Assembly: GCF_041248615.1 (NCBI RefSeq)
Contig: NZ_CP158426.1
DNA length: 64,000 nucleotides
From: Escherichia coli
GTDB taxonomy: Bacteria > Pseudomonadota > Gammaproteobacteria > Enterobacterales > Enterobacteriaceae
Reading direction: 5' to 3' (one strand)
The notes under the pieces were generated by a model that saw only the letters and a program-made list of their open reading frames with translations, was not told the DNA's origin and did no database searches. The translations under genes and the position numbers were made by a program. The stretch's first letter is position 1. Every line of letters begins with the position of its first letter. Of the stretch, positions 56,866-56,923 are shown in pieces.

Positions 56866-56923
56866 TTCAAAATTCGACGAATTAACGATATTTGTCTGAT
56901 TAATAATCAGACCGGATTAATGT

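Follow-up and report, generated by a model that had tools for sequence, protein, structure and literature searches.

For the convergent genes ykgL and ykgO of Escherichia coli MG1655 an excludon, i.e. a pair with overlapping transcripts, was reported in at least 50% of the RNA-seq samples (ExcludonFinder, PMC12288877). An antisense RNA opposite the ykgM promoter was described as ECS017 (PMC3175480). On the ykgL strand, an RNA 3' end at MG1655 312325 (+) was found by Term-seq in two growth conditions (Adams et al. 2021, PMC7815308). It was classified as not Rho-dependent (Rho score 0.91), and its intrinsic-terminator score of 2.35 lies below the cut-off of 3.0. For the same strand a Rho-termination region was reported at 312466, inside the antisense of ykgO/ykgM (PMC7815308). 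No 3' end is listed in that study for ykgMO itself, which was repressed in the media used. With calprotectin, ykgM, ykgO and ykgL were the three most induced genes of E. coli Nissle, with log2 fold changes of 9.73, 9.51 and 9.27 and counts of about 370,000, 51,000 and 16,700, respectively (PMC12279244 Table S1). Regarding the ecp genes, the promoter start is placed 121 bp upstream of the ecpR ATG in a passage of PMC10038029 that cites Martinez-Santos 2012, and an ecpR/ykgL 'promoter island' was found to be associated with H-NS (PMC3661553).

The window analysed here, i.e. the whole stretch of 64,000 nucleotides of E. coli DNA, holds a perfect palindrome after ykgO. The initial annotation described it as a repeat of 17 bp in an AT-rich spacer between ykgMO and the ecp regulatory region. 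The repeat was confirmed: TCTGATTA-A-TAATCAGA is exact at 56895-56911, and in this strain the symmetry reaches one pair further, giving 19 bp at 56894-56912 (GTCTGATTA-A-TAATCAGAC). The description of its surroundings has to be corrected, as ykgL is annotated there by RefSeq on the minus strand and its stop codon (the reverse complement of 56900-56902) lies inside the palindrome. The GC content over 56850-56949 is 29%. The palindrome starts 29 nt 3' of the ykgO stop (56865) and is set within the 34-bp gap separating the convergent ykgO and ykgL stop codons. Over 56400-57600 the window matches strain 266917_2 with 100% identity and K-12 with about 95%. The coordinates of the features are collected in Table 1.

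Table 1 Features of the region around the palindrome, in window coordinates
Feature	Coordinates	Strand	Description and basis
18-bp perfect palindrome GTTATGTTATAACATAAC	56433-56450	.	Just upstream of ykgM; palindrome scan
ykgM (type B L31)	56462-56725	+	ORF; RefSeq annotation of the 100%-identical strain 266917_2
ykgO (type B L36)	56725-56865	+	Stop TGA 56863-56865; ORF and RefSeq annotation
HP0	56860-56887	+	9-bp stem, 10-nt loop, spans the ykgO stop codon; -8.3 kcal/mol
Palindrome / HP1	56894-56912	.	19-bp perfect palindrome, 17-bp core 56895-56911; as RNA an 8-bp stem with 3-nt loop on either strand
ykgL	56900-57125	-	Annotated 75-aa ORF in K-12; frameshifted pseudogene in this strain
ykgL-strand 3' end (MG1655 312325 +)	56914	-	PMC7815308 supplementary files 1 and 3, mapped by sequence
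HP2	56916-56953	+	15-bp stem (56916-56930 with 56936-56950), 5-nt loop, then UUU(CC)
ecpR	57949-58491	+	Annotation

A search for perfect palindromes (arms ≥ 9 bp, spacer 0-3 nt) gave four distinct sites in the window. First-order Markov shuffles gave 1.1 ± 1.1 per 64-kb window. Since about one palindrome of such size is thus expected by chance, the palindrome alone is only mildly unusual. The palindrome upstream of ykgM is one of the three other sites. It fits the core of a Zur box, and we take it to be the ykgM Zur box, the site of the Zn-dependent control of the operon. Elsewhere in the window, a 35-bp perfect palindrome with 17-bp arms, TAAATATCCTGGCATTACTAATGCCAGGATATTTA, lies in an intergenic region at 33937-33971. 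Its immediate 5' flank corresponds by sequence to an abundant 'orphan' 3' end which Term-seq detected in MG1655 at 324603 (minus strand) with 43,000-86,000 reads (PMC7815308 supp. 1).

The plus-strand RNA of 116 nt from the ykgO stop on (56860-56975) was predicted to fold into three consecutive hairpins, HP0, HP1 and HP2, with a total of -41.2 kcal/mol. None of 200 shuffles was equally stable (z = -7.6), and the K-12 allele gave the same three-hairpin fold (z = -5.3). The palindrome forms the middle hairpin, HP1, just 5' of HP2. This fold, present in K-12 too, and the co-induction of ykgL reads favour its assignment to the 3' end of ykgMO, which had been a secondary idea of the initial annotation. 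With moderate confidence, we regard the palindrome as an ordinary, small AU-rich stem-loop of the 3' UTR, which is partner-free and belongs to the RNA level. An earlier description of this hairpin was not found.

For HP1, -8.1 kcal/mol was calculated on the plus strand and -8.7 kcal/mol on the minus strand (K-12 allele: -6.5 and -5.2 kcal/mol). HP2 reached -21.1 kcal/mol on the plus strand vs. -15.8 kcal/mol on the minus strand. It is about 5 kcal/mol stabler on the ykgMO strand because two positions form G.U on the plus and C.A on the minus strand. The minus-strand mirror of HP0 is weaker (-5.6 kcal/mol, z about 0) and is followed by UUUUUUC, which is derived from the A6 of the ykgO Lys codons. 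A scan of 55500-58600 with the covariance models of Rfam 15 (E ≤ 1) returned only folP RNA (20.8 bits, E = 0.38). With a score far under the gathering score of 99, this was discarded as a chance match. For an sRNA derived from the ykgMO 3' UTR no support was found in the literature.

The published 3' end of the ykgL strand could be placed by its flanks (AACATTAATCC before and GATCTGATTA after the end), with the end at position 51 of the 61-nt strings of PMC7815308, as checked on the sgrS entry. It lies 2 nt past the mirror hairpin of HP2 and 2 nt before the palindrome, which puts it 14 nt short of the ykgL stop codon. This end is best read as protected by the hairpin or produced by processing. 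HP2 marks the 3' end on the minus strand and probably does so on the plus strand as well. On the minus strand, HP1 is no barrier to the trimming or termination that sets the RNA end at HP2.

In the Nissle data, ykgL reads are up about 600-fold together with ykgMO. Counted over the stretch of about 53 nt up to the end of HP2, the ykgL reads amount to about 315 per nt vs. about 365 per nt for ykgO, provided that they come from the ykgMO strand. This fits Zur-controlled ykgMO transcripts which cross the palindrome and mostly end near HP2; read-through of about 20% over all of ykgL fits the counts equally well. The inferred end of the ykgMO mRNA is at or close to HP2, and HP1 may contribute to stability.

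The status of ykgL as a gene is affected by these observations. The ORF is intact in K-12 (75 aa), truncated in O157:H7 and frameshifted both in the strain of the window and in APEC O1. The sister-lineage loci L005 and L006 do not retain it, and no match to a Pfam or NCBIfam family was obtained. Both HP2 and the palindrome fall into its last 51 nt. Due to the frameshifts or truncations in many strains, the loss of the ORF in the sister lineages, the lack of a family and an RNA ending before the stop codon, ykgL is probably no real protein gene. The 'ykgL induction' in RNA-seq under zinc limitation is then probably made up of reads of the ykgMO 3' UTR. This matters for zinc or calprotectin biosensors based on Zur/ykgMO and for any quantification of 'ykgL', where reads over ykgL probably stem from the same UTR.

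For the comparison across genera, 80 orthologous loci were fetched via YkgM. No homologue of the palindrome outside Escherichia was detected in these loci, where ykgO is followed either by convergent coding DNA or by a canonical GC-rich terminator. Hence, a 3'-end structure is expected at this position. The AT-rich 3' region is common only to two further Escherichia lineages. These are E. albertii (L005 and the metagenome contigs L108 and L113) and a divergent lineage consisting of L006, labelled E. coli SCPM-O-B-8794, and L109. A metagenome scan for ancestral-type variants gave only three contigs of relevance, all of them duplicates of the types of L006 and E. albertii.

HP2 is kept in E. coli, in the L006/L109 lineage and in E. 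albertii, with compensatory variation. One covarying pair is U-A in K-12, U.G in the window and C-G in E. albertii and L109; the second is G-C in E. coli and A-U in E. albertii. Over 10 sequences of three lineages, two-sided changes were counted at two pairs of HP2 (94.7% paired) and at none of HP1 (90% paired), the observed two-sided count being reached by 62 of 500 shuffles. The element of the post-ykgO region which is kept in all three lineages is HP2, not the palindrome. In the HP1 columns of L006/L109, seven of eight positions pair, with two G.U, one C.U mismatch and a loop of 15 nt, and an alternative small hairpin TGTCTG-GTTAG-CAGACA is possible. For E. albertii only three of eight pair and the palindrome is absent. 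Compared to L006, 6 nt (GCAGAC) are gone from the loop in E. coli and three substitutions are present, each of which turns a mismatch or wobble into a Watson-Crick pair. Thus, the perfect palindrome is a derived, E. coli-specific state. As far as can be judged from the sequences, its perfection could be due to selection for the stem or to quasi-palindrome 'correction' by template switching.

Of 5426 complete E. coli genomes, 5056 hold a single copy of the 95-nt region. In the 38-nt segment around the palindrome, no difference was seen in 2045 records, one in 2800 and two in 216; at least 80% of the segment is covered in 5060 of the 5061 E. coli records which have it, with a maximum of two mismatches among those. 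The 17-bp core was invariant in the 11 intact haplotypes sampled. The outer pair is G..C here, G..T in K-12-type alleles and A..C in APEC O1, and the commonest variant, G..T, corresponds to G.U on the ykgMO strand. Conservation, by which the initial annotation wished its palindrome to be judged, thus holds for the core in the sampled E. coli haplotypes and breaks down in the sister lineages, where the palindrome is lost.

Two natural lesions were identified at the equivalent of window 56904-56921. In strain 1428 the 3' arm is gone through a deletion of 17 bp between direct repeats of GATTAAT. In strain MMC-J-0020, IS903B is inserted at the 3' arm with a 9-bp target duplication (TCAGATCGG). Both lesions indicate that the palindrome site is dispensable, and the two strains are natural alleles ready for function tests.

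In the preferred reading, HP1 would be a stem-loop in the shared 3' region of two convergent units, the Zur-repressed ykgMO and the ykgL strand. Zinc starvation would derepress ykgMO, transcription would continue past the ykgO stop and the RNA would fold into HP0, HP1 and HP2. The real 3'-end determinant, and the element under selection, would be HP2, with HP1 as an accessory just upstream which has no sequence-specific partner. At most, HP1 would maintain local structure in the 3' UTR, allowing HP2 to fold cleanly and slowing down 3'-to-5' exonucleases. Its perfect symmetry would be recent, an older imperfect hairpin having lost 6 nt of its loop and gained three pairing substitutions.

All this evidence is also compatible with HP1 having no function at all. 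The palindrome would then be a neutral by-product without function as DNA or RNA, produced by the 6-bp deletion and a templated quasi-palindrome mutation and persisting through the low diversity of E. coli. We consider this possible, though unlikely. The chance expectation of about one such palindrome per 64 kb suits it, as do the absence of the palindrome in E. albertii, its imperfect form in L006/L109 and the loss of the 3' arm in one strain together with IS903B at this arm in another. The lack of two-sided changes in HP1 likewise speaks against a role of this hairpin. Furthermore, all 10 variable sites fall in the 78 positions of the flanks and none in the core of 17 positions, a distribution which is not significant (P about 0.14 if sites are uniform). 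The invariance within the species is therefore too underpowered, with 0 of 10 variable sites in the core, to be used as a sign of constraint. On the other hand, all three substitutions against the L006 lineage improve pairing and the loop was shortened, and the palindrome lies between a stop codon and a conserved 3' hairpin, a position where structured RNA is common. The neutral account overlaps with the stem-loop reading, as the hairpin forms in the transcript whether or not it is relevant.

The initial annotation preferred a dimeric operator involved in silencing or activation of ecp. This found no support. A homodimeric regulator on the 17-19-bp palindrome, acting as roadblock between the convergent units or as distal ecp/H-NS site, is quite improbable, although the perfect odd-centred dyad symmetry, the operator-like length and the invariant core in the sampled haplotypes would agree with it, and the AT-rich surroundings would suit nucleoid proteins. 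About 25 operator consensus strings were compared, each ranked against every position of the window; as plain strings and not curated matrices, they provide a weak test. The set included Fur, Zur, IHF, Cra, CRP, FNR, LexA, ArgR, Lrp, Fis and the H-NS high-affinity motif, and also RcsAB, lux box, PurR, TyrR, MetJ, NagC, IclR, tetO, OxyR, NarL and DnaA. For the four regulators named in the initial annotation no match well above background was obtained: Fur 9/19 (5370 window positions as good), Zur 10/23 (7538), IHF 7/9 (660) and Cra 7/16 (10940). In general, the strings match the palindrome no better than hundreds to thousands of other positions. The sole full match is to a very degenerate Fis pattern, GNNYRNNWNNYRNNC, which could be counted in favour of an operator but is found at 234 window positions. 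A NagC-type string matched 10/12 (24 window positions as good); it is centred about 6 bp off the dyad axis and was discounted as an operator.

The copy number and the position of the palindrome also argue against an operator. No second copy with up to three mismatches was detected in the window and no further copies in E. coli genomes (median one, maximum two places per genome; 5056 genomes, E ≤ 10). A dispersed repeat of the REP/BIME, ERIC or MITE type was rejected as well, since there is one place per genome. Matches on plasmids turned out to be E. coli chromosomal fragments and chance matches. The contexts of the 18 exact matches to viral contigs are unrelated; two or three of these contexts have a T-run after the palindrome, which there resembles a phage terminator. 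Outside E. coli, the palindrome is lost in the sister lineages although ykgMO and HP2 are kept. The site is located between two stop codons with no adjacent promoter, and the promoter scan gave no promoter-like sites within 300 bp. The ecp start maps to about 57828, about 925 bp from the palindrome, and the promoter island to about 57536-57934, more than 600 bp off.

Some further motifs were observed between ykgO and ecpR. Directly 5' of the palindrome, ACGATATTTG at 56884-56893 lies in the 29% GC stretch; we take it to resemble the H-NS high-affinity motif TCGATAAATT/TCGATATATT. The ecpR leader contains a perfect palindrome, ACCTGTA-AAAAT-TACAGGT, at 57872-57890, which is placed after the reported ecp start and about 59 nt before the ecpR ATG. 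The half-sites are those of a lux box (ACCTGTA...TACAGGT), but the spacer has 5 nt instead of 6. A LuxR-type protein, e.g. SdiA or EcpR, could have its site here. TTCCT pentamers are enriched over 56952-57759 (9 vs. about 2.3 expected). The members of one pair, 57569/57591, are spaced by 17 nt and stand about 235-260 bp before the ecp start; probably these are the EcpR boxes. The pair 56952/56968 abuts HP2 and is probably not an EcpR site, as the 57569/57591 pair with its N17 spacing fits better.

A further possibility is that the palindrome controls the ykgL-ykgO excludon in E. coli specifically. Either as a roadblock on the DNA, bound by a dimeric protein, or as an RNA hairpin gating read-through, it would set the amount of ykgL-strand antisense RNA entering ykgO/ykgM, an RNA already detected opposite the ykgM promoter (ECS017, PMC3175480). 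If true, this would sharpen, by an added layer after initiation, the zinc-controlled choice between L31/L36 and the zinc-free paralogues of these proteins. The findings do not require antisense gating by the palindrome, and we regard this proposal as very improbable.

An intrinsic (Rho-independent) terminator was rejected for the palindrome. HP1 has a terminator-like stem of 8-9 bp with three G-C pairs and a 3-nt loop, but it is weak, and a U-tract is absent after the stem on both strands (plus: CGGAUUAAUG, CGGAUU; minus: AAAUAUCGUU, AAAUAU). The terminator scan of 56200-58000 gave no terminator-like sites, HP1 and HP2 both failing. No mapped RNA 3' end was found shortly after the HP1 stem; the sole nearby published end, MG1655 312325 (+), is upstream of the palindrome on the ykgL strand. 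The initial judgement that the repeat is not a good terminator thus proved right. HP2 is followed by 3-4 U in E. coli and by none in L006 or E. albertii; it is a candidate for a non-canonical or weak terminator of ykgMO. Bidirectional terminators are common between convergent E. coli genes. That ykgO and ykgL share such a terminator here, as the position in the inter-stop gap and the same hairpin on both strands might suggest, is hardly credible in view of the missing U-tracts and scan sites, a stem of only -5 to -9 kcal/mol, a mapped minus-strand 3' end before and not after the palindrome, and Rho-dependent termination of the ykgL strand about 140 nt further on (312466).

Compared to known systems, the palindrome shares with intrinsic terminators a stem-loop at an operon end with a 3-nt loop and three G-C pairs. 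It differs from them in lacking the U-tract; HP2 is the better candidate, yet has just UUU(CC) after its stem. With metalloregulator operators, i.e. the ykgM Zur box and the Fur box, it shares the perfect symmetry, the AT-richness, a comparable length and a place near the same operon. In contrast to these, its sequence is different and it sits at the 3' end of the operon, not at the promoter. The clustered changes which perfect an imperfect hairpin, a 6-bp loop deletion and three substitutions, are like the products of quasi-palindrome template switching. Such a likeness concerns the origin of the sequence, not its function, and three lineages cannot separate it from stepwise selection.

The 3'-UTR stabilising stem-loops, REP-type or terminator-proximal, are matched by a short hairpin past the stop codon in tandem with a larger 3' hairpin, which forms without protein where other genera carry a terminator. 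Unlike these, the palindrome is single-copy and not a REP/BIME, its AU-rich stem is weak (-8 kcal/mol), and it evidently does not stop the trimming on the minus strand. To define the ykgL-ykgO excludon the palindrome is not required, and it matters little by itself. It is central in the reported overlap between the 3' end region of the minus strand and HP2 of the plus strand, and the post-ykgO 'spacer' is probably the overlap zone of two convergent transcription units.
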